From IMG/VR virus record IMGVR_UViG_3300042553_000685: DNA of 64,000 nt; one strand, given 5' to 3'. Positions 5,252 through 34,534 of the stretch are shown here, in pieces (positions within the stretch are counted from its first letter, which is position 1; every line of letters starts with the position of its first letter). This stretch comes from a virus. A model generated the notes under the pieces. That model was not told the origin of the DNA, made no database searches, and saw only the letters and a program-made list of their open reading frames with translations. Made by a program: the position numbers and the translations under genes.

Positions 5252-5878
5252 TTAGTATCTCCAGCGGGGCCCCTTCTTTCCTCCTGCTCTCCACCCCTTC
5301 GTTAACCCTAGGTGCGTGAAGCCTCTCCCACTCTGGGCCCCCCACCCCAGCGGCCCGTACCAATGCTCGTCTAACCACCTCTCGAACTCGATTAGCTCGG
5401 CGGGGTCTATGGACGCTATGTCTACCGCTAGCCCCTCTATATGCTGACTATTATCCACTCCTCCTACTGCCCTGTTAATCGCGAGGGGCCTATACCAACT
5501 CGTTACTATAATGAGCTTACCCCACTCCTCCCTTATCTTATCTAACTCCTTAGCTAGTCTCACTATATTGTCCTGGATGACCTTACTCGTTGGTATGCGC
5601 GCCGCCTGCCGCTTCGTTACCTCCCTCACAGTAAAGTACTTGCTTACCTTACTCGTCATATTTGTCCAGTCTATCTCCTCTAGTAATAGACCTATAGAAC
5701 CCGGCCCTATTAACCCCGGTTCCCCCATACCCTTACTCCTCTTCCAGTCCTCCCAGGCCTTCCTCGTCATTGGCCCCATTATTCCTGTCTGCTGTATCCC
5801 TAGCCTCCTCTGTAATTCTATTACCTGTATCTCACTCAACTTCTCTATACTAACCGCTCCCTTGATGTCCTTTAACAT
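5252..5878 (-). CDS. endolysin: PG-binding domain + peptidase M15 (D-Ala-D-Ala/L-Ala-D-Glu peptidase-like) domain
   Basis: LQRRLGIQQTGIMGPMTRKAW (PG-binding) and TSWYRPLAINRAVGGVDNSQHIEGLAVDI (M15 H..G.A.D). Start moved to the ATG at 5878, which has GGAGG 7-8 nt upstream. The longer track ORF runs into a non-coding repeat. Confidence 0.8.
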   Translation of the reverse strand: MLKDIKGAVSIEKLSEIQVIELQRRLGIQQTGIMGPMTRKAWEDWKRSKGMGEPGLIGPGSIGLLLEEIDWTNMTSKVSKYFTVREVTKRQAARIPTSKVIQDNIVRLAKELDKIREEWGKLIIVTSWYRPLAINRAVGGVDNSQHIEGLAVDIASIDPAELIEFERWLDEHWYGPLGWGAQSGRGFTHLGLTKGWRAGGKKGPRWRY

Positions 5879-5943
5879 ACCATTACCTCCTATATAACTG
5901 CTCCATACTGCCACACCTCTACAGCTTATTACTGAGCTCTTAG

Positions 5944-6113
5944 ATTCTTGATATTTGCTGGCGGTATTTTGGTCTATTATAAGGTATACCCCCTCCCCCA
6001 CCCTCCTGCTGGCGGTATTAAACTATATACGTATTAATACCTAGAGCTCCTAGATTCTGGATATTTGCTGGCGGTATTTTGGTGTATTATAGGGTATACC
6101 CCCTCCCCCACCC
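5944..6113. repeat. two ~70-bp direct repeats with 100-bp period in divergent intergenic region
   Basis: 5944-6003 and 6044-6113 are near-identical (gagctc[t/c]tagattct[t/g]gatatttgctggcggtattttggt[c/g]tattata[a/g]ggtataccccctcccccaccc); third partial copy tgctggcggtatt at 6007-6019. Confidence 0.85.
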
Positions 6114-6208
6114 AGGGGCTATCCATTTCAACTAATATAGGGATGCTCGATCCTCTTGGGTATTGGTATCACCTGCTTCAAGTAGATGGTGGTATGGCAT
6201 TAATAATA

Positions 6209-6260
6209 GGGCCTGCGGGCCCCTTTTTCCTTCTGGTGAATTTTAATCCTAGGAGGATAC
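6209..6260 (+). promoter_or_regulatory. terminator-promoter-RBS cassette copy 1
   Basis: GGGCCtgcgGGCCC hairpin, CTTTTTCCTTCTGGTGA, ATTTTAAT, CCTAGGAGG, ATG at 6261. Confidence 0.55.
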
Positions 6261-6599
6261 ATGATCTACAAACATTTGCCACGAGAATTTGACTACGCCT
6301 ACCGTGGTCATACTCACACCGACCTCGATTGGGGTCGGTGTGGCGAAGTTCTTTACGCCAGCCGCAGTCTGGCAGTGGCCAAGGACTTCGCTCGTGGAGG
6401 GCATGGGGCTGTGCTCATTCTCGCCTTCGACGGCGACGTCGAAGGCGACCGACCTTGGTGGTACGTAGAGGATGACCCCTCCTACTACGACGAAGTAGTC
6501 CTTCCGACCAGACTATGCGTCTGGTCTAAGTTAGTAATATTCGGCGGTGAGATCATCGCCGAACCAGTGATTAACTGGAACCCAGGTTATACCAAGTAA
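6261..6599 (+). CDS. early-block protein, possible small ADP-ribosyltransferase (112 aa)
   Basis: Own cassette and RBS; ordered YRG (6300-6308), LYASRSL (approx 6351-6371), YDEVVLP (approx 6486-6506) resemble R / S-x-S / E-V-V-L-P motifs of R-S-E ARTs. Confidence 0.6.
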   Translation: MIYKHLPREFDYAYRGHTHTDLDWGRCGEVLYASRSLAVAKDFARGGHGAVLILAFDGDVEGDRPWWYVEDDPSYYDEVVLPTRLCVWSKLVIFGGEIIAEPVINWNPGYTK

Positions 6600-6613
6600 C
6601 CTGGGGTAATTTA

Positions 6614-6669
6614 GGGAGTGTAATGCTCCCTTTTTCCTCGTAGTGAACCTTATCTCTAAGGAGGAGATT
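6614..6669 (+). promoter_or_regulatory. terminator-promoter-RBS cassette copy 2
   Basis: GGGAGtgtaatgCTCCC hairpin, TTTTTCCTCGTAGTGA, CTAAGGAGG, ATG at 6670. Confidence 0.5.
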
Positions 6670-6993
6670 ATGCTTTACGTTTTGAACTCTTTTCCCAATT
6701 CTTTGTACCCCACCACGCCGGGTGGGGTTATAACCAGCACTTGTATTTCAGAGGAAGAGGCCCGCGCTCTCCTCTCCATTACTGACTGGACAAGTGCTAT
6801 AGGGCACCTCTCTACGGCGGAGCTACTCTCCGCCCGTCTCGGAGTAACCGTACCCGATTCACGGGTACAGGTGCCCCCAGGGGCCGAGTATATTGTATGT
6901 TTATTTGTCAGCCCTCGGCGGCTGGCAGAAGGAGAACGATGGACGGAGGAGGATATACTCCAGTTCGACATCAACTACATCCTTGTTAAATAG
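6670..6993 (+). CDS. acrIII-1: DUF1874 / AcrIII-1-family viral ring nuclease homologue (107 aa)
   Basis: MLYVLNSFPNSL, TSAIGHLSTAELLSARLG, SRVQV..EYIVCLF..RRLAEGERWTEEDI and INYILV align along the whole length with my recollection of SIRV1 gp29/STIV B116 (YLANAFSINML, SIGHDSTIQLINSL, NRVEI, RLEEGK). Start set at the ATG at 6670 with AAGGAGG. Confidence 0.8.
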   Translation: MLYVLNSFPNSLYPTTPGGVITSTCISEEEARALLSITDWTSAIGHLSTAELLSARLGVTVPDSRVQVPPGAEYIVCLFVSPRRLAEGERWTEEDILQFDINYILVK

Positions 6994-7002
6994 TTGATAG
7001 AA

Positions 7003-7055
7003 GGGGCACAGTGCCCCCTTTTCTTCTAGTGATCTTTATACCCAAGGAGGGTATT
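7003..7055 (+). promoter_or_regulatory. terminator-promoter-RBS cassette copy 3
   Basis: GGGGCACaGTGCCCC hairpin, CTTTTCTTCTAGTGA, TCTTTATAC, CCAAGGAGG, ATG at 7056. Confidence 0.55.
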
Positions 7056-7190
7056 ATGAATACTAAACTATCAATTGTTATTGCTGTCAGTGCCGTTTTA
7101 CTAACATGCTCTGCCATCATTGGTGGAGTATACGTAGGCATTTGTCACAGTAACTACCCCGTGACGGCGTGCGAGGTAGACAAAGAGTAG
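7056..7190 (+). CDS. 44-aa single-pass membrane peptide (paralogue A)
   Basis: Below ORF-track cutoff; translated by hand MNTKLSIVIAVSAVLLTCSAIIGGVYVGICHSNYPVTACEVDKE; strong RBS; own terminator. Confidence 0.6.
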   Translation: MNTKLSIVIAVSAVLLTCSAIIGGVYVGICHSNYPVTACEVDKE

Positions 7191-7197
7191 TAGTTAA

Positions 7198-7253
7198 GGG
7201 GCCTGGGTGAGGCCCCTTTTTCCTTCTAGTGATCTATAACCCTAGGAGGGATT
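7198..7253 (+). promoter_or_regulatory. terminator-promoter-RBS cassette copy 4
   Basis: GGGGCCtgggtgaGGCCCC hairpin, TTTTTCCTTCTAGTGA, TCTATAAC, CCTAGGAGG, ATG at 7254. Confidence 0.55.
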
Positions 7254-7388
7254 ATGAAATACACATTATCTTACATAGCAGCTATTGCGGTAATTCTTGG
7301 CACATGCGGTGCCATCATTGGTGGAGTATACCATGAGGCCTGTTATGGGCCTCTACCTACCTCACTATGTAAGGTAGACAAAGAGTAG
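7254..7388 (+). CDS. 44-aa single-pass membrane peptide (paralogue B)
   Basis: Hand translation MKYTLSYIAAIAVILGTCGAIIGGVYHEACYGPLPTSLCKVDKE; shares TC.AIIGGVY and C.VDKE with paralogue A. Confidence 0.6.
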   Translation: MKYTLSYIAAIAVILGTCGAIIGGVYHEACYGPLPTSLCKVDKE

Positions 7389-7395
7389 TAGTTAA

Positions 7396-7451
7396 GGGGC
7401 CTGGGCAGGCCCCTTTTTCCTTCTAGTAGTTTATAATCCTAGGAGTACATC
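7396..7451 (+). promoter_or_regulatory. terminator-promoter-RBS cassette copy 5
   Basis: GGGGCCtgggcaGGCCCC hairpin, TTTTTCCTTCTAGTAG, TTTATAAT, CCTAGGAG, ATG at 7452. Confidence 0.55.
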
Positions 7452-7967
7452 ATGAATGGTCTACAAATGGAGAAAGTAGTGTTGCGTGTGATTGAAGAAT
7501 TAGGTTTTAAATGTCCCAAGCCCCGTGAGGTATGGGGGGAGGGTTACTTGTATAACGCCGCCCATGAGCTCGCGAATAAGCATCTAGAGCTCAACTCCCG
7601 AGGCGGTGTCCTTCGTCGTCTCGTCCCCACTGATGATTGGGGAGTCCTAGACCGGGTATACAAGGTGGACGTAATAGTCCGCCAGTATACTGGGGAATTA
7701 TGGGCTCTTCAGCTTACTACCGATGCCGAGGCGGTATATAAGAAGCTGGGCCAGCTTTATAGTACCGATAGTCTTCGTCTGGCTGTTGGCATCGCCAAGA
7801 CCTGCTTGGTGGAGATTAAACCCCCTCAGCCTACCTGGGAGGGGCTCGGCCTGACTAGCCGGGTGGACCGGGATCAAGTAGAGGAGTGCCTCTATGAAAT
7901 GTTCGAGACAGTAGAAAAGAGTGACAAGCTCTTTCACTACCAGCTAGACCTAAGCTGGTTAAAGTAA
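7452..7967 (+). CDS. hypothetical early-block protein (171 aa)
   Basis: ORF track; preceded by cassette copy 5; no motif recognised. Confidence 0.6.
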   Translation: MNGLQMEKVVLRVIEELGFKCPKPREVWGEGYLYNAAHELANKHLELNSRGGVLRRLVPTDDWGVLDRVYKVDVIVRQYTGELWALQLTTDAEAVYKKLGQLYSTDSLRLAVGIAKTCLVEIKPPQPTWEGLGLTSRVDRDQVEECLYEMFETVEKSDKLFHYQLDLSWLK

Positions 7968-8017
7968 TTTAAGAGTATAGGCAAATCCTCAGAGTAAATG
8001 GGATGCCTACGCTACCT

Positions 8018-8082
8018 GAGTGGAGTCACGGCTGTGGTTCCACTCGCTTGATTACATAGACGCTAAGTGCATCTATGTAATC
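8018..8082 (+). ncRNA. two strong hairpins in a 127-nt untranslated gap (sRNA or terminator candidate)
   Basis: GAGTGGA(8018-8024)/TCCACTC(8039-8045) and GATTACATAGA(8050-8060)/TCTATGTAATC(8072-8082), both perfect stems. Confidence 0.25.
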
Positions 8083-8094
8083 AATTAATACTCA

Positions 8095-8149
8095 GGAGGG
8101 CCCACTCCCCTTTTCTTTCTAGTGAATATTTACTCTAGGAGGTAAATCC
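8095..8149 (+). promoter_or_regulatory. terminator-promoter-RBS cassette copy 6
   Basis: GGAGggcccaCTCC, CCTTTTCTTTCTAGTGA, ATATTTACT, CTAGGAGG, ATG at 8150. Confidence 0.5.
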
Positions 8150-8299
8150 ATGTCCCCTTATCACACTTATCTTCAATTAAATCATCAAACGATTCAACTC
8201 CGGTCCGTAGATGGGCCAGCATGTCATCTAGACCTGGATGGTCACCGCTGGTATGTTCTACCAGATGGTGACTTCGAGATCATCACTCTAATAGACTAA
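8150..8299 (+). CDS. 49-aa hypothetical protein
   Basis: Hand translation MSPYHTYLQLNHQTIQLRSVDGPACHLDLDGHRWYVLPDGDFEIITLID; strong RBS; a truncated copy lies at 9133-9252. Confidence 0.55.
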   Translation: MSPYHTYLQLNHQTIQLRSVDGPACHLDLDGHRWYVLPDGDFEIITLID

Positions 8300-8306
8300 C
8301 ACTATA

Positions 8307-8361
8307 GGGGGCTATATGCTCCCCTTTTTCCTTCTGGTGAATTTTAGTCCCAGGAGGACAC
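8307..8361 (+). promoter_or_regulatory. terminator-promoter-RBS cassette copy 7
   Basis: GGGGGCtatatGCTCCCC, TTTTTCCTTCTGGTGA, ATTTTAGT, CCCAGGAGG, ATG at 8362. Confidence 0.55.
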
Positions 8362-9120
8362 ATGTACAAAATCCTAGCAACGTCAATCTACGCCGCACTA
8401 CAGGCAGCAGGCATCTACGTCCACCCAACGACGTGGGCGTTCATCTCGTACTATTTCATGGGCGGTTCCCAACCCCCAACCCTCTCTGAGGCCGACATCG
8501 CTGAGACACGCGACGCGGTAATACGAAACCTCAAGGCTCGTCTTAAGGACGAAGAAATGAGCCGCCGCTCTCTAGTTACTTTCGTGGACATAAATATAGA
8601 AAACGGTTGGTGGTCTTCTTTAAAGGGGGCCATCGGTAACTTCAACTACCGCATTTTGGCGGTAGGTCCCGACACGATTAAGGTGGAGTGTCGTGACACG
8701 TGGGACTTCAATCCCAACTCCCATTACATAGAGCTACCCTGTTCGCCTCGTTTAGCGAGTGCAATATCTTCTCTGGCTAAGAAGGTAGGTATAGAGGTCT
8801 TCTACAATAAAAATAAAAGAGAGCTAATTTTCTGTGAAAAGGATCTGGTCAAGCTCAATCCTGGTCGCGCCTTCACGACCGTGTGGAAAGTAGAGGTCCC
8901 CACAGCGGAGGTAATTCCTGAGTGGGCTACTTACTGGGAGGTGGCTACCTGGAATGAAGGTAACTATGCCTTCATTCGGCCTCTCAAGTACGTACCCTTA
9001 CCCCTCTGCCGCTACCAGCGGGGTAATGGAGTTTATGTTGGACGGGACTACCATCCCGACATCGATTACGTGTCGATGTTAGAAGCAGGTTGGGCTCCCG
9101 CTGTAGATTTACCTGAATAA
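8362..9120 (+). CDS. hypothetical early-block protein (252 aa)
   Basis: ORF track; cassette copy 7 upstream; flanked by the 49-aa gene and its truncated duplicate. Confidence 0.6.
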   Translation: MYKILATSIYAALQAAGIYVHPTTWAFISYYFMGGSQPPTLSEADIAETRDAVIRNLKARLKDEEMSRRSLVTFVDINIENGWWSSLKGAIGNFNYRILAVGPDTIKVECRDTWDFNPNSHYIELPCSPRLASAISSLAKKVGIEVFYNKNKRELIFCEKDLVKLNPGRAFTTVWKVEVPTAEVIPEWATYWEVATWNEGNYAFIRPLKYVPLPLCRYQRGNGVYVGRDYHPDIDYVSMLEAGWAPAVDLPE

Positions 9121-9132
9121 TTAAACATTTAT

Positions 9133-9252
9133 TCTAGGAGGTAAATTCAGCATCGGTCTGTAAATGGGCCGGCATGTCATCTAGACCTCAATGGTCATCG
9201 CTGGTATGTTGCACCAGATGGTGATTTGGAGATTATTACTCTAATAGGGTAA
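9133..9252 (+). pseudogene. 5'-truncated duplicate of the 8150..8299 gene
   Basis: Keeps CTAGGAGGTAAAT, then lacks ~55 nt including the ATG. 9152-9252 is ~85% identical to 8201-8299 and encodes ..VNGPACHLDLNGHRWYVAPDGDLEIITLIG. Confidence 0.6.
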
Positions 9253-9366
9253 TGCTATGGGCCCGTCTCTACTTCTTATTCAAGATAGAGGCGGGCCCCT
9301 CGTCTCTAAATGATAGCGCCTTAAAAAGAAGAGGAATGAAGTTCAGCACCTGAGTTCGTTAAGTAC

Positions 9367-9419
9367 GCCAGCAATTGGCCCCTTTTCTTTTAGTAGTCCT
9401 ATACACCCAAGTATACACA
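9367..9419 (+). promoter_or_regulatory. cassette copy 8 (degenerate, no SD)
   Basis: GCCAgcaaTTGGC, CCCTTTTCTTTTAGTAG, then 25 nt to ATG at 9420. Confidence 0.4.
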
Positions 9420-10157
9420 ATGAGAAACAACAACAACAACGACAACCAGGCCTCTAATCAAGCCTCTAACCAAGCCTCTAACTCCAAAAGCTACGTATTT
9501 ACCCTTAACGTAAGTCGCACTGCCAGCACTAAGTCTGGCGTTCTTGCTTACGTGCACAATGGTGCTATCAAGCGCCGCCTGGATGGGTCTAGCTACTGGC
9601 TGGAGTTCCGGCTGATATCCATTAAGAACGGGGAGGTACCTCTCACTACCTCCGATGGTCGTAGTTTATGTACGTCCGAGTTTGTAAAGCTTCTCTCTGG
9701 AGACGCTAGCGATGACGTGATAATGTCTGTAGAGTTATCTACAGATTTCGAAGACGGGTGGGATAGCTCGTGGGGATGTGTAAAAGTTAGCTTCAACGCA
9801 GAAGACCTCCGCGTTGGGCGCGAAACAGAGTACAAGGGCACAATAACCCAGTACCTTCACCTTGAAGGTGCGGAAATCCAACTTCATCGGGAAGTTGTCC
9901 GTCCGAAAATAGACCCGTCTATACTAGATGGGTTTGAAAGTATCGCAAAGCCTAACGTAGTAACTGCGGAACAGTTACATAGTAAAGCGGCCGCCCGCAA
10001 ACGCAAACGGGAGGCTGCTAAGGCTGCACGAGATGCTGCAGCAATAGTATCTAAGCCAGGTACTGTTGTTGAGTCAGTAGTAGCGTCTAATGATACTGAT
10101 ACTGATTGGGAAGTGCCGGCTGCCCTATCCGTCGACATCGACTATATACTTGACTAA
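9420..10157 (+). CDS. hypothetical protein with N-terminal Asn/Gln-Ala-Ser repeats and basic-then-acidic C-terminus (245 aa)
   Basis: Start set at ATG 9420 just after cassette; MRNNNNNDNQASNQASNQASN; C-terminal ARKRKREAAKAARDAAA then acidic tail. Confidence 0.6.
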   Translation: MRNNNNNDNQASNQASNQASNSKSYVFTLNVSRTASTKSGVLAYVHNGAIKRRLDGSSYWLEFRLISIKNGEVPLTTSDGRSLCTSEFVKLLSGDASDDVIMSVELSTDFEDGWDSSWGCVKVSFNAEDLRVGRETEYKGTITQYLHLEGAEIQLHREVVRPKIDPSILDGFESIAKPNVVTAEQLHSKAAARKRKREAAKAARDAAAIVSKPGTVVESVVASNDTDTDWEVPAALSVDIDYILD

Positions 10158-10162
10158 TAAAA

Positions 10163-10215
10163 GGGGCCCTGCTTGGGCCCCTTTTTCCTTTAGTGGCTAT
10201 ATATTACCACTAACC
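10163..10215 (+). promoter_or_regulatory. cassette copy 9
   Basis: GGGGCCCtgcttGGGCCCC hairpin, TTTTTCCTTTAGTGG, CTATATATT, ATG at 10216. Confidence 0.5.
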
Positions 10216-13200
10216 ATGAATACCATCAACTCTATCGTCTTCCAATCCAATGTTCTCGTAGCCTCTATCGGCGCCGTTATCGCAAACACTCGTGTTACTA
10301 CACGACGTGTAGGCCCTGGTCGCCGTGCTCAGCAGATAGCAAGCCGCCGCGCTAATCGCGTAGTACGCCGTCGCTCTCGTCGTATTGCGTCGGCTGGTCG
10401 TCCTATCCGCTCCTTACCTCAAAGCCAACGCCCCTGCGTTGTAAAATCGGCACGACGTACGCTACGTCGTGCCGCAGCTGCCACAGTCTTAGCCGCTCGC
10501 AAACCCGTGTTACGTAACCGTAACGTCGTAGACAAACTTATCTTACGACAACGTAAGGCCAAACCTATAATGCGCGCTGTCAGCGCAGTATTTGCGCGTC
10601 CCTCGCGTCCTACTAACACCGGCACCGGCACTAAAGCCGTTGCTACCGTAGTTAATAATGCTGCTGGTAGTATTATCGCTGCCCTCGACCAAGGGCGCCT
10701 AAACTATCGTGGCAACGGCCGCACATGTGTGGGCAAGAAGTACAAAACTAAAAACGCTAAAGCCGTTTTAGCGATAGCTAAAGCTGCTAAAGCTACTGAT
10801 AAAGCAGCACGCGTTAAACGCTGTATGAGCGTTGTAGTACCAGAATTACCAAGTGATGTACTGGCTTGCCGCATGAGAGTCGTAGGCAAACTATGCGGTG
10901 TGACCTTTGTACAAGGGGACATAGCGTCTTATTGTGACAATGTCGTTACTATACCTTCATTCGAAGATATATACGCGATAACTCACGAGCTTGTCCACCA
11001 CTGCCAAGCTCTAGGTCTTACTGAAGACCTAGATATAGCTCTGGTGTCTGAGGCCGCTATTGGCGCGGGCTCGGCTCAATGGCATGACACTAAATCGTTC
11101 TACGAAGGTACTGAGCATGAGAATGATGAATACGAAGCAGCTCTGCTTATGTACGACCCGGCGTTAGTGGCCCGCCTCTTATGCACTCACTACCTCATGA
11201 CCGCGTTTGTAGAAAGCGGGGCACCTGGTCCTGATGATACATGGATGGATGTGGTAGATAGTTTAGATCCTGCGATTTGTCGTGAAGTCGTAGGTCTCGA
11301 TGATCGCGTACTCGATTATAAAACCTATGGCGAATATGCTGAAGCCGTTGGATATGATGACACTAATACGTTATTAGACTGGGAATTTGTCTTTAACAAT
11401 AGTGTCAACAACGATAATGCTGTTGCGCTAACCATTCAAGCAATTGATGGTCTTATTGGTGCGGCGCCCGCAGCAGTAACTCCTACCCACCCGCTCTCTA
11501 ACATAGGAGCCCCTACTAAGGGGTTAGAGAGTGATAGCTCCTCTAACAATACCACCAACACTAGCACTACCATGAAGAGCATTATCGAGATGTTAATTCC
11601 TGACCCTAGTACTCTCGGTGGAGCCGTGTCTCCTAAGCAGGAGGCGCGCATTACGGGAGCTCGTAAAGAGTTAACCCGCTTGTTTGGGGCTAATAACTTC
11701 GACCTTCTGCCTGAAGGTCCGATTCTCTATGTCGTATCTGGTTACAACCGTATGTGTAAGAAGTTCCTTGCGCTTCTAGACCATCGGGTTGTTTACACCA
11801 CGGATTCTAAAATGAATCCTAAGGTCATTAACTTAGGTGTAACTAAGTCTATTCCCTATGAAGACGACAAGCATACCTATACTACTAAGACCGAATGCTT
11901 AGTTAGCATGTATAGTGAGCACTTCCTCACTAAATTAGCCACGTGGTCTGGTGATGACCTGGCCGCTCTTGTAGGCTGCCTGTGTATTAAACAACACCGT
12001 ATTGTTAGTGTTGAGGGCCCCTGTGTTGTCATCAAGGGTAATAACCGTAACACTACTTTCAACTTTAGTACAGGTACCGTCAATGACGGCCGTCAGAGTC
12101 GCATCGCTAATGAGCTAGTTAAAGTAGGAGGCAAAGACTACAGTGGTCGTGTAGCCCTTGTAGCGCTCTGTATGAAGGTAGTGTATAACGCTACTGGTGC
12201 GCGTGCTATCCTCAATGAGGTAACTAACCTATGGCGCGAGGACATCAACTACGGCGCTCAGCCTAAAGAGGGTCAATCTCTATTTGAGATTAATCGCTGT
12301 ATGTCCCGTCCTGTTGTTTTCAAGCCTTGGGATAAGGCCTTCCCGTTCCTGCAAGTGGAGAACGTTGGCCTCGCACCCAGCGATCTTGAATTGTCGCTCA
12401 AAGCCGGTGTCATAGCAGCACCTGATAAATACAATTCAAAATGGATCGCTGTAGGTAAGGGTGCCAAGGCCATGTTCCTCGGACTTAAGGATAGTAAGAT
12501 ATACTCCATCCATGACTTCAGCAAGCCCACTAAGGTATACAACCGTCCACCTAGCTCGGGTAAATACACCCGTGCTGAGGTGGTAGGTCGTCATGATAGC
12601 CTACTTCGCGTTGATTTAGGTGATGGTAGCTATAGTTGTGGTGGTGGCCTCTATCTACGCACCGCATTCACCAATAGCCGCTTTGGCTTTGGCAGTGGTG
12701 TTGCTGCTATACGCCGCGACCTTGAGTTCGAATACACCGTACCGAAGACCATTACTAAGGAGTTTCACGTACTCCGTATTCCTAGCGAAGTCCGCGCTCT
12801 TATGGCTGCTGATCTAGATGACCCTATGAGTAAACTCATGGAAGTCATCGAAGGCAAAATAGAGAAGGCAAAGGGGCAGGTCTATGCTCCTGGTAACCCT
12901 ATCATTAGCATTATGCGGGGCAAGTACTGCATAGTGAAGAACGAGACATTCGCGCAGGACATCCGCGTAATAGGCGGGACTGTCACGCGTAATGGCGTCG
13001 AGGGCCGCGCTGATAGCGTCACTATTCGACTTGAGACTGAGATGGTAGGGCGCGACCAAGCCCTCAAACTCCGCGGTCTAGGTAAGAAGCTTACCACTCT
13101 TCCCTATGACGTTGAGGGACTATCTCAACCCTGGGATATCATCCTAAATAACGAGACCACCAAGGGATGGCCCGCGCTCATAGAGATGTTCGCCATTGAG

Positions 13201-15297
13201 AAGAGAGGCTGCACCTATACTCCTGAGGGTGCGCTTCTCACCATCGATGCTACTGGTGAAGTTATTGATCTTATGACTAAGAGTAATACCTTTACTGAGT
13301 GGGCTCGAGCCAACAGTGTTAAAGAGGTCATCTCTTTTAATATGGCCCGCGACCTGTGGGATTCCATCTCCTCCGTAGTAACTAACGATGACATCAAGGT
13401 AATCGACATCGACGATACCAGCGTCCGTATCGAAGAAACAGTAGAGGTTATATACGGCTATCTGCCGTATGATATCGAGATAGCCACTCCTCGTGAGTCC
13501 GTAGCATTCTCCAAAATGACTATGGAACAGGTGGGTATTGTGGCTCTACAGAACCGCTCTTGGGGCGAAGCACTCATGGAGGAGGTTAAGTACGATAACG
13601 TCATGTCCATAGTTAGTATGATCACGTCTAAAAACTGTGCTGCTCACATTAACATCAGCACTACTGAGGGGCGTGACCATCTACGGAACATTATCGGCGT
13701 AGTTAACAACTACGTTTCTGATAGCACCCCCGGCAGTGACCGCAAACTGCTAGAGCGTTTTGCTACCATCTATCCAGATGGAGTGGATATCGTTGCCCAG
13801 AATAACGGTAATGAGGTCTCTCTTCATATCAATGGTAAGGCCCTAAGCGCGTTCGGTACCTTCTCTGGCGCCTCCGCTACTGGTATTATGCTAGACCTCT
13901 TGACACTGTTGGCCTACGTTACTGATGTAGGAATTGAAGACCAAAGCGGTTTGGATAGTAAAATCTACTCCATGACCGCTAAGGTCAGCCGCGGTTTACG
14001 CACATGGTGTAACACCATGGTTAAATCCAAAAGCATTCTGAAAAGTATGGCCCGCGCTGGCGATGTGGTCGTTGGTAAGGTCAAGACCAGCTATAGCCCC
14101 TTGCTCCATAGCTCTGATGGCGTGCCTGTAATTCTCATGCACCCCGATTGCCCTATGGTGCGTATGCTTGGCATCGAAGAAGGTCAGGTTATTGGGATAC
14201 AACGGACTCCTATGGGCTTCGTCCTATGCGGCCGCGTTAAGTTCTCTGCTACTGATGCCTTTATCGCACACTACACAATCAACCCTCTCCTATGGCACGC
14301 CGTTAACGAAGGCGATGCTGATGGTGACCAGTGCGGCGGCATTAATGCTCACAAGTATAGCATCGATGCTGAGAGTGCCCTCACTATCAATGCTAGTCTC
14401 ATGGGCATGGGCGGCTACTTCTACTGCTACGAAGCAGATGACCTGCCGTTCTTCGCCTTCATGAGTTATGAAGATAAGATGGGCAAGAAATCCCTCACTA
14501 AGTGGGATAAGCCTGTAGCTACTGCTATCGCTGTTGATAAGTATGTAAGCGATGCTGCTGAAGTGCACACGCATTATAAAGTAGCCGTAGGTGTCGGCTA
14601 CGGCATCTGCTCCGCACTTGCCTTCCAGACCTGGGATAGTATGTACCGCGCTAGCGGCGTCGATACCGACGCACTTAAAGCATGTGTTATCGCTTGGCGT
14701 TTCGTTTATGAAAGCATGGGTCTCGGGGGCTATACCCCTGAGGCTAAGATCTTCATGGCTACCTTAGTGCAAGCAGCTCGCGCCTGGGCTGCTGGCGTAT
14801 CTATGTATAAGTCGTTGCAAGACGGGTTATACTACTCTGCCAACTCCACTAAGCTTGCGGATACGGATCGCCAGGGAGGTAGTGTACCTCCTGCTCGGGT
14901 TATGGCTAACCTTATGCCTGCTAAACTAGCTAAGGAGCCCGCGGTAATCTACCATCTTATAAAGGCCCGCGCCCGTACTCTCACATACGGCGCTCTCGAA
15001 CGGGGCAACTTCGCTCGCAAGAGCCTTATCATGTCATCTGCCATATACGGAGCCTTCCGTCGTACTGGCCAGGGTCATGATCCTGTGGTTCCTATGACTC
15101 AGGATGACGCGGCCAGTTATGGCGCTGATGATATCGTCCCCGTTAGTGTGTTCGACATGGTAAGTGAGTTCCAACTCTCTAACTATGTCAAGAACCCTCA
15201 ACTCAAGCAGCTGTTGGAAATCGCAACTGCTGTACATCTCGATCTCGGTGACTACAAACTAGAACTCGCTGAAGCTGAAGATCATCCTGATTTCTAA
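10216..15297 (+). CDS. giant protein (1,693 aa): candidate single-polypeptide two-barrel (beta/beta-prime-like) RNA polymerase with Arg-rich N-terminus
   Basis: Uninterrupted 5-kb ORF. LKLRGLGKKLTTLPYDVEGLSQPWDIILNNE (13064-13155) resembles the beta motif K..GRHGNKG..MPYDENGTPVDIVLNP. QRTPMGF...INPLLWHAVNEGDADGDQCGGINAH (14200-14350) resembles beta-prime NRAPTLH...[20 protein letters not shown]. HELVH lies at 10984-10998. The first ~130 aa are extremely R/A-rich. Start moved to the ATG at 10216 after the cassette. Confidence 0.6.
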   Translation: MNTINSIVFQSNVLVASIGAVIANTRVTTRRVGPGRRAQQIASRRANRVVRRRSRRIASAGRPIRSLPQSQRPCVVKSARRTLRRAAAATVLAARKPVLRNRNVVDKLILRQRKAKPIMRAVSAVFARPSRPTNTGTGTKAVATVVNNAAGSIIAALDQGRLNYRGNGRTCVGKKYKTKNAKAVLAIAKAAKATDKAARVKRCMSVVVPELPSDVLACRMRVVGKLCGVTFVQGDIASYCDNVVTIPSFEDIYAITHELVHHCQALGLTEDLDIALVSEAAIGAGSAQWHDTKSFYEGTEHENDEYEAALLMYDPALVARLLCTHYLMTAFVESGAPGPDDTWMDVVDSLDPAICREVVGLDDRVLDYKTYGEYAEAVGYDDTNTLLDWEFVFNNSVNNDNAVALTIQAIDGLIGAAPAAVTPTHPLSNIGAPTKGLESDSSSNNTTNTSTTMKSIIEMLIPDPSTLGGAVSPKQEARITGARKELTRLFGANNFDLLPEGPILYVVSGYNRMCKKFLALLDHRVVYTTDSKMNPKVINLGVTKSIPYEDDKHTYTTKTECLVSMYSEHFLTKLATWSGDDLAALVGCLCIKQHRIVSVEGPCVVIKGNNRNTTFNFSTGTVNDGRQSRIANELVKVGGKDYSGRVALVALCMKVVYNATGARAILNEVTNLWREDINYGAQPKEGQSLFEINRCMSRPVVFKPWDKAFPFLQVENVGLAPSDLELSLKAGVIAAPDKYNSKWIAVGKGAKAMFLGLKDSKIYSIHDFSKPTKVYNRPPSSGKYTRAEVVGRHDSLLRVDLGDGSYSCGGGLYLRTAFTNSRFGFGSGVAAIRRDLEFEYTVPKTITKEFHVLRIPSEVRALMAADLDDPMSKLMEVIEGKIEKAKGQVYAPGNPIISIMRGKYCIVKNETFAQDIRVIGGTVTRNGVEGRADSVTIRLETEMVGRDQALKLRGLGKKLTTLPYDVEGLSQPWDIILNNETTKGWPALIEMFAIEKRGCTYTPEGALLTIDATGEVIDLMTKSNTFTEWARANSVKEVISFNMARDLWDSISSVVTNDDIKVIDIDDTSVRIEETVEVIYGYLPYDIEIATPRESVAFSKMTMEQVGIVALQNRSWGEALMEEVKYDNVMSIVSMITSKNCAAHINISTTEGRDHLRNIIGVVNNYVSDSTPGSDRKLLERFATIYPDGVDIVAQNNGNEVSLHINGKALSAFGTFSGASATGIMLDLLTLLAYVTDVGIEDQSGLDSKIYSMTAKVSRGLRTWCNTMVKSKSILKSMARAGDVVVGKVKTSYSPLLHSSDGVPVILMHPDCPMVRMLGIEEGQVIGIQRTPMGFVLCGRVKFSATDAFIAHYTINPLLWHAVNEGDADGDQCGGINAHKYSIDAESALTINASLMGMGGYFYCYEADDLPFFAFMSYEDKMGKKSLTKWDKPVATAIAVDKYVSDAAEVHTHYKVAVGVGYGICSALAFQTWDSMYRASGVDTDALKACVIAWRFVYESMGLGGYTPEAKIFMATLVQAARAWAAGVSMYKSLQDGLYYSANSTKLADTDRQGGSVPPARVMANLMPAKLAKEPAVIYHLIKARARTLTYGALERGNFARKSLIMSSAIYGAFRRTGQGHDPVVPMTQDDAASYGADDIVPVSVFDMVSEFQLSNYVKNPQLKQLLEIATAVHLDLGDYKLELAEAEDHPDF

Positions 15298-15304
15298 TTA
15301 CAAT

Positions 15305-15370
15305 GGGGTCATATGACCCCTGGGGCCACCTGGCCCCTTTTTCTTTTAGTGGAGCTCTTTACTCCATATG
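15305..15370 (+). promoter_or_regulatory. cassette copy 10, not followed by a protein gene
   Basis: Tandem hairpins GGGGTCatatGACCCC and GGGGCCacctGGCCCC, then TTTTTCTTTTAGTGG; only a 9-codon ORF follows. Confidence 0.5.
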
Positions 15371-15798
15371 ATAGGTAGTATCTGGTATTGCCCATGACAG
15401 CGAATGTTACTAGCGGCGGCTTATGCTCGTGACGGCGAATTCTATTAGCGGTGGCAATAAACTATCTGTTGGGTACTCCCTAAGCACCCAGCAAGAGCTG
15501 CGTTAGTTTCATTAGCCACTCCCTTTCAGAAGAGCTATTGTCGCGATAGCTACCATAGCTATATTAGCCACTCCCCAACGGAGGAGCTTATGGTACTCGA
15601 GCTGCGAAAGTAGCCAGTGCCACTCCCCAACAGAGGGGCTTGTGTCGCACTAGTCGTGATAACTACTATAGCTGCACTAGCTGCTCTAGCCACTCCGTTG
15701 GGGAGGGCCTATGGTACTCGAGCTGCGAAAGTAGTCGATACCACTCCCCAACGGAGGGATATAACCTCTAATTACTCATTATTACCTATTAGCTAGCC
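15371..15798 (+). repeat. non-coding hairpin-repeat region (candidate structured RNA or iteron origin)
   Basis: Five CCACTCC-N5-GGAGG-type modules start at 15516, 15568, 15620, 15690 and 15741. A 25-nt repeat tatggtactcgagctgcgaaagtag occurs at 15589 and 15710, each holding a GCUGC-GAAA-GUAGC hairpin. A 26-nt repeat occurs at 15395 and 15430. No ORF. Confidence 0.7.
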
Positions 15799-16485
15799 AT
15801 GAGAACACAACGCGCCGCCAAAACCACCGCAGGAACCACCGCCAAAACCACTACTACTCTATCCCCTATAGAAGCATTCAAAGCAGCGGTAGCAGAACCT
15901 AAACCACAGGAATCCAAAGCGCAACTGCTTTTCTCAATAGCGTTTACAACTAAGTTCCTTCCAGAACGCATGTGGAGCAAAATGTGTGCCGATGGAACCG
16001 TCCGGCTAATCGGCACAGTCGCGCGGACTAATAACATTACCCATCAGGGCAACCCAGTCAACAACGACCAGTTAGCTGGTCTCACAGTTGAAGTCCGGGT
16101 AACACCGGACCAATTTGAGATTATCACTGATGGCGCTGAAGACATGGTAGGAGGGGGCGTCTCTATCCTGTTTGAAGTAGGGGAGCCCAGCTTATCTGAA
16201 CTCACCGCAGCAAACGGTGAGGAAGTCAATAGCATTGTCTTCTACGCTAAGTCCTTATTAGGCATAGAAGTCAATCAGACTGCTATCGGCAGCCTAGGCT
16301 TTGAGACAAAGGAAAAGATGGATGACTGGTTCTTAGCAGCGCGGTCTCAGAATAATAATCGGCAGAAGCGCCGGCAGGAGGAACGTACTTCCCGACTGCA
16401 AGCTGCTCGTGCAGCAGCAGATGCAGCAAATAATAATAATACGGAGTGGGCGGCCCCTGCCGCAAGCACCAATCCTATGGAATAA
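15799..16485 (+). CDS. hypothetical protein (228 aa), Thr/Ala-rich N-terminus, basic C-terminal segment
   Basis: ORF track; RQKRRQEERTSRLQAARAAADAANNNN near C-terminus; no domain recognised. Confidence 0.55.
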   Translation: MRTQRAAKTTAGTTAKTTTTLSPIEAFKAAVAEPKPQESKAQLLFSIAFTTKFLPERMWSKMCADGTVRLIGTVARTNNITHQGNPVNNDQLAGLTVEVRVTPDQFEIITDGAEDMVGGGVSILFEVGEPSLSELTAANGEEVNSIVFYAKSLLGIEVNQTAIGSLGFETKEKMDDWFLAARSQNNNRQKRRQEERTSRLQAARAAADAANNNNTEWAAPAASTNPME

Positions 16486-33153: not shown

Positions 33154-33180
33154 ATCAGTTATCAGTTATCAGTTATTAGT
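33154..33180. repeat. STRR-like heptamer tandem repeat (ATCAGTT)3+
   Basis: atcagtt x3 perfect at 33154-33174, then a degenerate unit; intergenic. Confidence 0.8.
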
Positions 33181-33205
33181 GTTCACTCATTATTTAGGAG
33201 TAAAA

Positions 33206-33427
33206 ATGAAGATTCGTATTGAAGGTATTTGTGAGTGCAGTAAAGTCGGTATAATTATCGACTCAAAATATATACTGTACGTGGCTTATATTTACGAAGA
33301 TGTATTGCCTTCGCGACAGTTGGATACGGAAAATCAGTACTATGTAGTTTTTGATCCTATTATTCAACTGCAGCCAATTACAACTACGCTTCAGTTATCA
33401 CCTGAATTGCGTCAATGGAACAGTTGA
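33206..33427 (+). CDS. hypothetical protein (73 aa)
   Basis: Start set at ATG 33206 after TTAGGAGTAAAA RBS. Confidence 0.5.
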   Translation: MKIRIEGICECSKVGIIIDSKYILYVAYIYEDVLPSRQLDTENQYYVVFDPIIQLQPITTTLQLSPELRQWNS

Positions 33428-33430
33428 TTT

Positions 33431-33451
33431 ATCAGTTATCAGCTATCAGTA
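33431..33451. repeat. STRR-like heptamer repeat
   Basis: atcagtt atcagct atcagta; intergenic. Confidence 0.75.
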
Positions 33452-33476
33452 AACAAAATAACTTAGGAGTAAAGCA

Positions 33477-33716
33477 ATGACAATGATAGACATAGGACAA
33501 TTTGCTAAGATTGAGATAAACTGGTACGAAACAAAGTCATATCCGTTTCGATATTCAGAAGGCATTCACTATTTTATCCAAAAGGATCAGGGATGGATAG
33601 TAGATGAAATCGCTAAATGGGTAAGAGAAACTCATTTTAAAAAAGACTTTCCCTCGGTTATCGATTGGAAGTTAAAAGTAACTTATCAAAACTCTAAAGA
33701 TAGGATTCCGTGGTAG
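33477..33716 (+). CDS. hypothetical protein (79 aa)
   Basis: ORF track; TTAGGAGTAAAG RBS. Confidence 0.5.
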   Translation: MTMIDIGQFAKIEINWYETKSYPFRYSEGIHYFIQKDQGWIVDEIAKWVRETHFKKDFPSVIDWKLKVTYQNSKDRIPW

Positions 33717-33782
33717 AATCCAAGTCATTCAACTACACTAACCTGCGAGAATCGCCAAAATGCCGCGTTTAAATTTAGCTTT

Positions 33783-33950
33783 ATGACAGTATTTCCAAAT
33801 ACTGATATTGAGTTATATTACGATGGTGGCCGTATAGATGAAGTTGACTTTTGTTTATTTGATATAGCCGACCCTTCTAAAACGGAATTAATGCTTGAAG
33901 AAGAATGGGTGTATTTACTTGGCGCCGCATCTTTCTTATTTGGTAGGTAA
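33783..33950 (+). CDS. hypothetical 55-aa protein
   Basis: Hand translation MTVFPNTDIELYYDGGRIDEVDFCLFDIADPSKTELMLEEEWVYLLGAASFLFGR. Confidence 0.35.
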   Translation: MTVFPNTDIELYYDGGRIDEVDFCLFDIADPSKTELMLEEEWVYLLGAASFLFGR

Positions 33951-33956
33951 TCAATT

Positions 33957-33970
33957 ACCAGTTATCAGTT
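33957..33970. repeat. STRR-like heptamer repeat (2 units)
   Basis: accagtt atcagtt; intergenic. Confidence 0.6.
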
Positions 33971-33994
33971 AGTAATCCTTAATCAAACAAAAAA

Positions 33995-34534
33995 ATGAAA
34001 CCTTTGCATAAACTGGGTAAATATCACAATCTAGAGAAGCTAAACAAAATAGCAACCGATTCTTGTTTTACTGATAAGTTTCCTACAAAACATAATTATG
34101 TAAACCCTCTCTATAATGAGTACGATTACTCTTATACTTTATGGGCTACTCTGGGAGTAGAATGGCACGTCGACGACATTTATAAAGATAAAAAATACTC
34201 AATTATTTTAGTCGTCGAAAGTGCCAATTATGAACTTTACGCATCATCAGTAAATAATAAAAAAATAGAAAAACTTTTAAAAACAGATTGCGACACCACT
34301 TTTAGGAGTATGGATGAGCGAATAGATAATCTGTTAGTTCGCAGAAAAAACACTCAAAGGCTAATATTAAAAGCAGGGGATATTTTGCTGTTAGATATTT
34401 CATTCTACCATAAACTAGAAAATACAAGGAAAACAGAAAACCCTTTTATCTTTATTAGCTTAGACATTGATTTTATCCCAAAGATCAAAGAAGCGGTCAA
34501 GGTTGTCAATTATTTTGTTTACGATTTTTTGTAA
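33995..34534 (+). CDS. hypothetical protein, possible 2OG-Fe(II) oxygenase/cupin-like (179 aa)
   Basis: WHVDD (HxD) and later GDILLLDISFYHKLEN (distal His) in typical order; weak. Confidence 0.5.
   Translation: MKPLHKLGKYHNLEKLNKIATDSCFTDKFPTKHNYVNPLYNEYDYSYTLWATLGVEWHVDDIYKDKKYSIILVVESANYELYASSVNNKKIEKLLKTDCDTTFRSMDERIDNLLVRRKNTQRLILKAGDILLLDISFYHKLENTRKTENPFIFISLDIDFIPKIKEAVKVVNYFVYDFL

Follow-up and report, generated by a model that had tools for sequence, protein, structure and literature searches.

In a 64,000-nucleotide stretch of viral DNA (IMG/VR record IMGVR_UViG_3300042553_000685, the whole of which is termed the window here), the genes between 6.2 and 15.4 kb are interspersed with ten copies of one composite repeat, and the question raised by this locus is what such a cassette does for the genes that it separates. 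The first-pass annotation had described it as a hairpin, a T-run, a conserved box, an AT box and a Shine-Dalgarno (SD) sequence, and had suggested that it might be a promoter read by an RNA polymerase encoded in the same block. In the analysis reported here the cassette folds as two tandem RNA hairpins, and we give about an even chance to the reading that it joins a terminator to a leader hairpin that masks the SD, the whole also acting as a joint for gene shuffling. Judged by sequence, the window is a Fukuivirus, that is, a Ma-LMM01-like Microcystis myophage, whose 6.0-16.0 kb region is 87-90% identical to MaMV-CH01, DH01, DL01/02, CH02, DC and Ma-LMM01 (genus Fukuivirus). The counterpart of the block in Ma-LMM01 is gp067-gp064, on the reverse strand of the Ma-LMM01 record, and the "42 bp repeats" come next, with the early genes gp063-gp054 behind them.

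The ten cassettes that had been claimed are real. Written as a regular expression (C-run, T-run, Y-run, YTRGTRR), the core matched ten sites in the 6.2-15.4 kb block, all on the + strand (6220, 6628, 7014, 7213, 7410, 8107, 8321, 9379, 10178 and 15334), and gave no match on the - strand or on either strand of the remaining 55 kb of the window; the motif is thus confined to this block and absent upstream of other gene classes. In first-order Markov simulations of 64 kb, scored on both strands, the core occurred 1.04 times on average and at most 4 times. The bare 11-mer, with two mismatches allowed, showed no window-wide enrichment (19 found against 20 expected), so that the significance rests on the composite and on its clustering. 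An ATG follows nine of the ten cassettes, the tenth being situated after a large open reading frame (ORF), and the nine ATGs listed by the annotation agree with annotated starts in the relatives. All of the Fukuivirus genomes and IMG/VR contigs examined carry the cassette; 186 copies with 73 distinct hairpin-1 sequences were counted over six GenBank relatives and 17 IMG/VR loci, every one of them in the same block and in the same orientation. A host origin of the core was considered and rejected, as its 19-mer gave five scattered single matches in 596 Gb of genomes and none in Microcystis, which is approximately chance. The covariance models of Rfam 15, applied to 5800-16000, returned one chance-level match outside all cassettes, and CCTAGG is neither enriched nor avoided globally.

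The two-hairpin structure follows from the box itself. The box, 5'-CCUUCUAG-3', is complementary to the SD region, 5'-CUAGGAGG-3', over eight pairs, one of which is G.U, and being the reverse complement of that region it turns the cassette into two tandem RNA hairpins. Hairpin 1 is a GC-rich, terminator-like stem with a U-tract, hairpin 2 is formed by the U-tract and box with the SD (or with the bases preceding the AUG in copies devoid of an SD), and the "AT box", together with a UGA, is the loop of hairpin 2 and has a low information content. The box thus supplies the 5' strand of hairpin 2 and the SD supplies its 3' strand, which replaces the earlier interpretation of the box as a free-standing promoter element. 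Of the originally described unit, the succession of hairpin, T-run and box stands, and an SD of the CCTAGGAGG type was found in only seven of the ten copies, being absent from copies 8 (9379), 9 (10178) and 10 (15334). The AT box is indeed A/T-rich and free of G, but it has no conserved position, with at most 1.1 bit per position among 39 non-redundant leaders.

Thermodynamic folding yielded the same picture. Hairpin 1 folds in all ten window copies, weakly in copies 6 and 8, and 90% of the 73 distinct sequences reach -6 kcal/mol or lower (mean -11.5 kcal/mol, z -3.5); its terminator-like character, already noticed in the first-pass annotation, was called by a consensus scan in nine of the ten copies. 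Both minimum-free-energy and centroid folds gave two tandem hairpins in eight of the ten copies, with whole-unit z-scores down to -4.5, and in copy 3 the SD is masked by a different local hairpin. Among 81 distinct cassettes that were folded, hairpin 2 appeared in nearly all SD-bearing ones at -6 to -17.5 kcal/mol. Hairpin 1 has loops of 3-8 nt, hairpin 2 loops of 8-14 nt. The leaders of the block genes are also more structured than those of 68 other genes in the window, both in mean energy (-8.9 vs -4.7 kcal/mol, p = 0.002) and in the paired share of the SD window (70% vs 37%, p = 1e-4), which amounts to 38% in the ten other strong-SD genes.

In an unfitted MAFFT alignment, 86% of the cells pair, compared with 46-70% in slid registers, and an A-U to G-C exchange is present in 12 sequences. 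Stronger evidence for a selected pairing than this paired fraction is provided by the combinations of box and SD-flank variants, in which UAG occurs with CUAGG 24 times, UGG with CCAGG 13 times, UGG with CUAGG (through G.U) twice and the mismatching UAG with CCAGG never. The CCAGG leaders were seen with four or more different downstream genes, and the hairpins upstream of them are of three or more kinds. The SD-less copies hold other box variants with non-purine partners (UUAGUGG/CCACUAA; GUGGAG/CUCCAU).

According to the favoured reading, the first part of the cassette, the GC-rich stem-loop with its U-tract, would stop or attenuate the host polymerase as it transcribes the upstream gene, and would leave a stable 3' end. 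In RNA that reads through, the second part would come into play, where the distal U-tract and CCUUCUAG would fold onto the CUAGGAGG of the next gene, or onto the bases beside the AUG in the SD-less copies, so that a helix of 7-11 bp, closed by the A/U-rich "AT box" as loop, would lock up the ribosome-binding site. The output of the array would be a low, individually throttled expression of the accessory genes and of the terminal polymerase gene, and the low expression of the Ma-LMM01 orthologues was counted in favour of this reading. The core of about 20 nt, which is nearly identical in every copy, would for that reason also serve as a crossover point at which modules are gained, lost and exchanged between phages.

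Several results weigh against this reading. Column shuffles of the alignment leave 84% of the cells paired, for a pyrimidine tract stands opposite a purine tract, and swapping cognate for non-cognate arms in hairpin 2 changes the energy from -10.6 to -9.1 kcal/mol, a gain of 1.5 that discriminates only weakly. The UGA after the box is conserved to at least 90% despite its location in the loop, which the hairpin does not explain. A helix of this stability would nearly silence translation at 20-30 °C unless it were opened. Finally, no polarity is seen across the five cassettes between gp067 and gp064 in the expression data discussed below, which is unlike the steep gradient due from efficient serial terminators without re-initiation, and implies that the terminators are leaky or suppressed, or that internal starts or processing intervene.

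The role of the cassette as a joint is reflected in the gene content between cassettes, which is different in every relative. Among 41 distinct BLAST breakpoints, 31 lie between -30 and +50 nt from a core, where 17% would be expected (p = 3e-16); their left ends cluster at -2 to +1 of the C-run and their right ends at +15 to +46, and hairpin 1 segregates with the upstream gene, while the box and leader segregate with the downstream gene. This clustering is partly mechanical, as cassettes that are alike let an alignment run into whichever of them flanks a shared gene. Recombination would nevertheless be a plausible cause of the breakpoints. At 9121-9252 on the + strand a decayed duplicate of the 8150 gene (49 aa, 8150-8299) has kept the leader TTCTAGGAGGTAAATTC and has no hairpin, box or start codon; high-scoring segment pairs at 9147-9251 match paralogues of the 8150 gene, the decayed eleventh leader lies at about 9121-9150, and the region looks like a scar of cassette recombination. 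Integron attC-like sites were rejected, the hairpins being far too short and no attC-type core sites being seen; an integrase gene was not searched for.

In this respect the cassettes resemble the promoter early stem-loops (PeSLs) of T4-type phages (Arbiol 2010, PMC2839356; Comeau 2014, PMC4122927), short units that likewise string a stem-loop, a regulatory segment, an SD and an ATG together before many small ORFs, cluster in a hyperplastic region, and mark the indels and gene swaps between close relatives. The stem-loop upstream, the SD (7/10) and ATG (9/10) at the 3' end and the hyperplastic swaps were all found in the cassettes, and a sigma-70-like promoter (-35, 17 nt, -10) was not. PeSLs hold such a -35/N17/-10 pair between stem-loop and SD, whereas the corresponding space in the cassette is about 20 nt shorter and filled by the anti-SD arm and the loop; moreover, Fukuivirus is not T4-like, and the cassette genes are not early. 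In genome evolution the cassette behaves as a PeSL would, but it does not belong to that class, since the defining sigma-70 promoter is absent.

Whether the design extends beyond the genus was addressed through the large ORF at the end of the block. An exhaustive HMMER search with its C-terminal 994 residues retrieved 155 relatives, and distant loci with polymerase relatives at 23-32% identity were compared. In four of them (L038, L039, L040 and L042), the 8-10 kb upstream of the polymerase gene hold a small-gene array on the same strand, with a GC hairpin and U-run before each small gene and a second hairpin in about half of the cases, whose 5' arm begins in the U-run and whose 3' arm lies over or against the SD or AUG. 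The arm pairs (CUUGUCCUA/UAGGACAAG, UCCCGU/ACGGGA, CCUAGG/CCUAGG, AGUGAGA/UCUCACU, UAGCAC/GUGCUA and CCUUAUU/AAUAAGG) are unrelated in sequence between cassettes, and each distant lineage possesses its own uniform post-hairpin string, e.g. TTATTTTGTA or TTTTATTTA. What is conserved is the two-hairpin design and not a sequence motif, and a design kept without its sequence is predicted by a structural element, not by a promoter box. In L039 (645-1830), whose polymerase is 25% identical, the leaders end in ...TTAGTCCTAGGAGGAC, near-identical to the ...TTTTAGTCCCAGGAGGAC of Fukuivirus, which implies that the leader is conserved well beyond what the protein divergence would lead one to expect.

Two of these lineages also contain a loop motif. 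AACTCAC(T) is enriched among the leaders, with 5 of 10 in L040 and 3 of 9 in L042, mostly in the loop of hairpin 2, and a shared ACTC-like loop motif is clear in these two only and not in Fukuivirus. The sites lie 6-42 nt before start codons (240, 2541, 4349, 7456 and 8750 in L040; 5656, 6404, 8758, 15021 and 15725 in L042), and one AACTCAC-type copy reads ACTCACTATA, which resembles the T7 promoter core. In L040 the motif is found on the + strand only, and in L042 it also stands 6-7 nt before start codons outside the array.

The large ORF itself (10216-15297, + strand, 1,693 aa) is the last gene of the array and the orthologue of Ma-LMM01 gp064, and it is likely, from motif conservation and structural modelling, to be a single-chain two-barrel RNA polymerase, with a catalytic DxDGD in a double-psi beta-barrel and a second barrel; the candidate put forward at first reading has thereby become a credible one. 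It carries NEGDADGD at aa 1364-1371, where the D, D, G and D (the D-x-D-G-D motif), together with an upstream R-x-P, are invariant in 34 aligned relatives from the 155-protein family, and the family profile aligns the motif, at E = 0.15, with RNP...DFDGD of PDB entries 8H2N/8H2M, which represent the virion polymerase domain of Thermus phage P23-45 gp96 (PMC10770324). A single-sequence AlphaFold prediction reached a predicted local distance difference test score (pLDDT) of only 31, and the exhaustive HMMER search and a model based on the multiple sequence alignment were needed to arrive at 87.9. With this model, all significant Foldseek matches in the PDB (E <= 0.001) are beta' chains of bacterial RNA polymerase, and among the weaker ones beta-like subunits (Pol I, Pol III, plastid and vaccinia polymerases) predominate, in addition to gp96; E-values range from 1e-4 to about 3e-2 (gp96) with low TM-scores, as expected for a very divergent polymerase class, and matches in the BFVD comprise giant-virus polymerases, LEF-9 and crAss-type proteins. 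Searches of the ORF against Pfam, PHROGs and, with phmmer, the PDB gave nothing informative, and every relative that a word-index homologue search turned up was more than 86% identical. Its N-terminal third begins with an Arg-rich stretch and shows an HExxH motif (ITHELVHH, about aa 257); a metallopeptidase domain is also present in P23-45 gp96. The assignment contradicts the published statements that these phages encode no polymerase (PMC5780444; PMC9927357), and no report of a polymerase in Fukuivirus phages was found in the literature. It does not show the cassette to be the promoter of that enzyme, and nothing ties the two together in that way.

As regards a promoter within the cassette, the sequence lends no support to the proposal. 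The earlier remark that the box and the AT element do not form a sigma-70 -35/-10 pair was upheld by a consensus scan, which finds none in any cassette, and a sigma-70 promoter was rejected on this ground and on the low information of the loop; in SD-anchored loops the equivalents of -11 A and -7 T are not conserved, and no more than some 37 nt lie between hairpin 1 and the ATG. The loop of one and the same gene varies freely between phages (auuuuagu, uucacuagu, uuuaucagu), and no T4 late TATAAATA was seen in the cassettes. A phage-specific promoter fares no better as first proposed, with the box being a hairpin arm, the AT box lacking conserved positions and the motif being restricted to this block. 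By analogy with T4 gene e, a promoter inside the loop of hairpin 2 is possible.

Expression data from Ma-LMM01 infection bear directly on this issue. RNA sequencing placed gp067-gp064 in the middle class (PMC5780444, Table S3), with log2 FPKM (fragments per kilobase per million) of 1.6-2.8 at 1 h and 6.6-8.4 later and levels 8-30 times below those of typical middle genes; from gp067 to gp064 the values are 7.9, 6.8, 6.6 and 7.5 at 3 h and 8.2, 8.4, 7.3 and 8.0 at 6 h (PMC5780444). That the orthologous genes are low-level middle genes and not early ones speaks against the cassette as a promoter read by the polymerase of the block, and the early genes, at which an injected polymerase would be expected to act, are situated downstream, past the last cassette. 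In the gap before the first of them, 15491-15758 contains five copies of a 46-52-nt unit with (T)AGCCACTCCCCAACGGAGG, in which a CTCC-N5-GGAG mini-hairpin is embedded (the "42 bp repeats" of Ma-LMM01). These repeats are a candidate early-promoter or origin site, and an injected polymerase may find a more natural target in them than in the cassettes. A single promoter prediction has been published for the block (by BPROM, in front of Ma-LMM01 gp067), namely TTGCTG-N17-TATARG, which is held by each of two copies of a 70-nt repeat on the + strand (5934-6003 and 6044-6113; GATATTTGCTGGCGGTATTTTGGTNTATTATARGGTATACCCCCTCCCCCACCC) and was not called by the consensus scan. The 70-nt element sits where the lysis genes (- strand) and the cassette block diverge, and recurs several times in the relatives.

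The surviving form of the promoter idea, and the main rival, retains the same hairpins and places a promoter of a non-sigma-70 kind in hairpin 2, within its loop or its 3' arm. The reader of this promoter would be the two-barrel polymerase of the phage or a host enzyme modified by the phage; the masking arm would silence read-through RNA, and RNA started in the loop would lack that arm and be translated. We regard it as somewhat unlikely. It would accommodate the flat expression over five cassettes in Ma-LMM01, with gp064 above gp065, the credible polymerase gene that closes the block, the array-then-polymerase synteny kept at only 23-32% polymerase identity, and the AACTCAC(T) of the two distant lineages; precedents are documented for T4 genes e, soc, 49 and I-TevI (PMC3014915), and the motifs used by the two-barrel polymerases known from phages are short and rich in AT or in GC (PMC10770324). 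On the other hand, the Fukuivirus loop has no conserved position and varies freely for a single gene, a start about 7 nt past the AT box would land within the SD or beyond it, the remaining 55 kb of the window lack the motif, the genes of the block are not early, and the AACTCAC located 6-7 nt before non-array starts in L042 fits a translation signal equally well. In its boldest version, the array and the polymerase gene would form one unit across divergent phages, with the cassette as a switch and the phage's own polymerase starting in the loop of hairpin 2, which we consider improbable.

Less probable again is an RNA processing or stability module, in which RNase E, or else a RegB-type phage nuclease, would cut the U-rich linker or the A/U-rich loop, so that the upstream mRNA would keep hairpin 1 as a 3' cap and the downstream mRNA would gain a 5' hairpin, or have its SD freed after degradation of the 5' arm. 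Single-stranded U-rich linkers between stable hairpins and A/U-rich, G-free loops are indeed what the cassettes offer, and such linkers and loops suit the preferences of RNase E. Processing would also reconcile flat RNA levels with strong structures, and in T4, RegB cleaves at GGAG within the SDs that lie between early genes (PMC3014915), but no RegB-like gene was identified in the window, and a cut in the linker alone would leave the SD masked. Even more doubtful is a conserved terminator and nothing else, the box being an extended U-tract homogenised by gene conversion and its pairing with the SD accidental. The pairing retained by shuffled columns, the homogenisation of repeated cores expected from recombination and the uniform string of each distant lineage (TTATTTTGTA, TTTTATTTA) would fit, but UAG/UGG covaries with CUAGG/CCAGG (24, 13, 2 and 0), the SD-less copies pair with non-purine partners, the distant arms are unrelated in sequence, which goes beyond composition alone, and the box travels with the downstream leader, not with the hairpin. 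A true PeSL, i.e., a stem-loop with a host sigma-70 (SigA) promoter forming an early-type unit for each gene, is scarcely credible, for although the stem-loop/SD/ATG order and hyperplastic setting match PeSLs (PMC4122927) and copies 4, 5 and 9 hold TATAAC, TATAAT and TATATT, the 37 nt or so before the ATG are too short for -35/N17/-10 plus an SD leader, no such pair is called, the -11 A and -7 T equivalents are unconserved and the genes are not early in Ma-LMM01.

Among known systems, the closest match to the masking part is offered by the hairpins of T4 e, soc, 49 and I-TevI (PMC3014915), where the SD and/or AUG lies in a helix with an upstream 5' strand and read-through translation is blocked; the placement of SD or AUG in a helix with upstream RNA was equally found in silico here. 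The T4 hairpins are single cases with a late promoter, TATAAATA, inside the structure, whereas the cassettes are repeated ten times, fused to a terminator U-tract and free of a recognisable promoter, the Fukuivirus masking structure having no TATAAATA, no sigma-70 -10 and no conserved loop position. With intrinsic terminators the cassettes share a 5-10 bp GC-rich stem, a 3-8 nt loop, 4-6 U directly behind the stem and a position 5-15 nt after most stop codons; they differ in that the U-tract runs into a conserved CCUUCUAGUGA that pairs with downstream RNA, and in that ten of them stand in series in one co-oriented block, one even before the first gene. SD-masking thermometers (fourU, the cyanobacterial hsp17 leader) likewise pair a U- or pyrimidine-rich strand with AGGAGG, but the cassette helices are far more stable (to -17 kcal/mol at 37 °C) and devoid of the weak pairs and internal loops that let thermometers melt at physiological temperature. 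In P23-45 (gp96/gp64; PMC10770324) and in N4, with its virion RNA polymerase, a phage polymerase gene similarly adjoins a repeated phage-specific motif. The P23-45 motifs were defined by mapped starts and lie upstream of pre-early and early genes (PMC10770324), in contrast to the cassettes, which are known from sequence and precede genes that are not early. The analogy once drawn to N4 hairpin promoters does not carry over, as the N4 enzyme is T7-like and recognises 5-7 bp DNA hairpins with 3-nt loops, while the polymerase candidate here is two-barrel, the hairpin-2 loops span 8-14 nt and hairpin 1 is often a stable RNA-type stem.

The individual cassettes, all on the + strand, vary around this plan. 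Cassette 1 (6209-6263) has hairpin 1 at 6209-6222, its U-run and box from 6224, hairpin 2 at 6228-6257 (CCUUCUGG with CUAGGAGG) and the ATG at 6261, and folds into two tandem hairpins at -23.8 kcal/mol (z -3.4). In cassette 2 (6613-6672), hairpin 1 at 6613-6631 and hairpin 2 at 6633-6667 (UUCCUC.../...GGAGGAG) precede the ATG at 6670 (-21.6 kcal/mol, z -3.4), and in cassette 3 (7003-7058; hairpin 1 at 7003-7017, ATG at 7056) the SD lies in the alternative hairpin at 7038-7054 (AUACCC/GGGUAU). Cassette 4 (7196-7256), the consensus copy, combines hairpin 1 at 7196-7218 with a 10-bp hairpin 2 at 7220-7251 (UUCCUUCUAG/CUAGGAGGGA) before the ATG at 7254 (-29.3 kcal/mol, z -2.9), and cassette 5 (7394-7454; hairpins at 7394-7415 and 7420-7445, ATG at 7452) holds TATAAT in the loop. 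A weak hairpin 1 (8095-8108) is followed by hairpin 2 (8115-8142) and the ATG at 8150 in cassette 6 (8094-8152), whose whole-unit z is -0.1. Cassette 7 (8306-8364; hairpin 1 at 8306-8325, ATG at 8362) presents the covarying version of hairpin 2 at 8329-8358 (CCUUCUGG/CCAGGAGG; -25.8 kcal/mol, z -3.5). The degenerate cassette 8 (9367-9422) has a short hairpin 1 (9367-9379), the box UUUUAGUAG, no SD and a weak local hairpin (9400-9415) before the ATG at 9420 (z -0.55). Cassette 9 (10160-10218), before the polymerase gene, has hairpin 1 at 10160-10184 and, without an SD, a hairpin 2 at 10190-10213 (UUAGUGG/CCACUAA) ending 2 nt 5' of the AUG (-27.1 kcal/mol, z -4.5). Cassette 10 (15305-15374), after the polymerase gene and with no gene behind it, contains an extra hairpin at 15305-15320, hairpin 1 at 15322-15337 and hairpin 2 at 15343-15374 (GUGGAG/CUCCAU; -32.9 kcal/mol, z -4.1).

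Further observations concern the same region. Hairpin-1 loops occur in both orientations among phages (GGGGCCCTGCTTGGGCCCC vs GGGGCCCAAGCAGGGCCCC, GGGAGCTATATGCTCCC vs GGGAGCATATAGCTCCC), as at 10163-10181 and in the orthologous hairpins of L003, L006, L018, L020, L022 and L023, and these are small inversions between the stem arms. The long spacer before cassette 6 (7968-8093) contains a hairpin at 8018-8045 (GAGTGGA/TCCACTC) and a perfect 13-bp stem at 8048-8084 (TTGATTACATAGA/TCTATGTAATCAA). The second gene of the array (6670-6993) encodes an STIV B116-like protein (Pfam PF08960, E = 4.6e-11), and the genes at 7056 and 7254 encode paralogous 44-aa proteins with a hydrophobic N-terminal stretch. 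By its cassette, the gp065 orthologue starts at the ATG at 9420 and not at the upstream TTG (9375-9420; 7837-7882 in L001), and the annotated start of Ma-LMM01 gp065, about 45 nt upstream inside the terminator hairpin, is probably wrong. Elsewhere, at 33160-34000, a different repeated leader motif (ATCAGTTATCAG...TTAGGAGTAAA) stands before three consecutive small genes (33206, 33477 and 33995).

For annotation, the cassettes show at which codon several genes truly start. Toxic Microcystis blooms are controlled by phages of the Ma-LMM01 type, whose timing of gene expression without a takeover of the host is a standing question (PMC5780444). On the favoured reading the cassette would provide a compact, two-level gene insulation, in which one pyrimidine tract is both the tail of a terminator and the anti-SD of the next gene, and the same repeat would account for the shuffling of accessory genes between strains. 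Until now the Fukuiviruses have been regarded as lacking a polymerase and as wholly dependent on host SigA, and the block directly upstream of the likely polymerase gene is a concrete place to seek phage-driven transcription. If the array and the polymerase were indeed one unit, host-polymerase read-through RNA would be terminated or masked and phage-polymerase RNA unmasked and translatable, with a start motif of the AACTCAC type in some lineages and WWACYC-like in Fukuivirus, and the Fukuiviruses would run part of their programme with an enzyme of their own and a new class of promoter.

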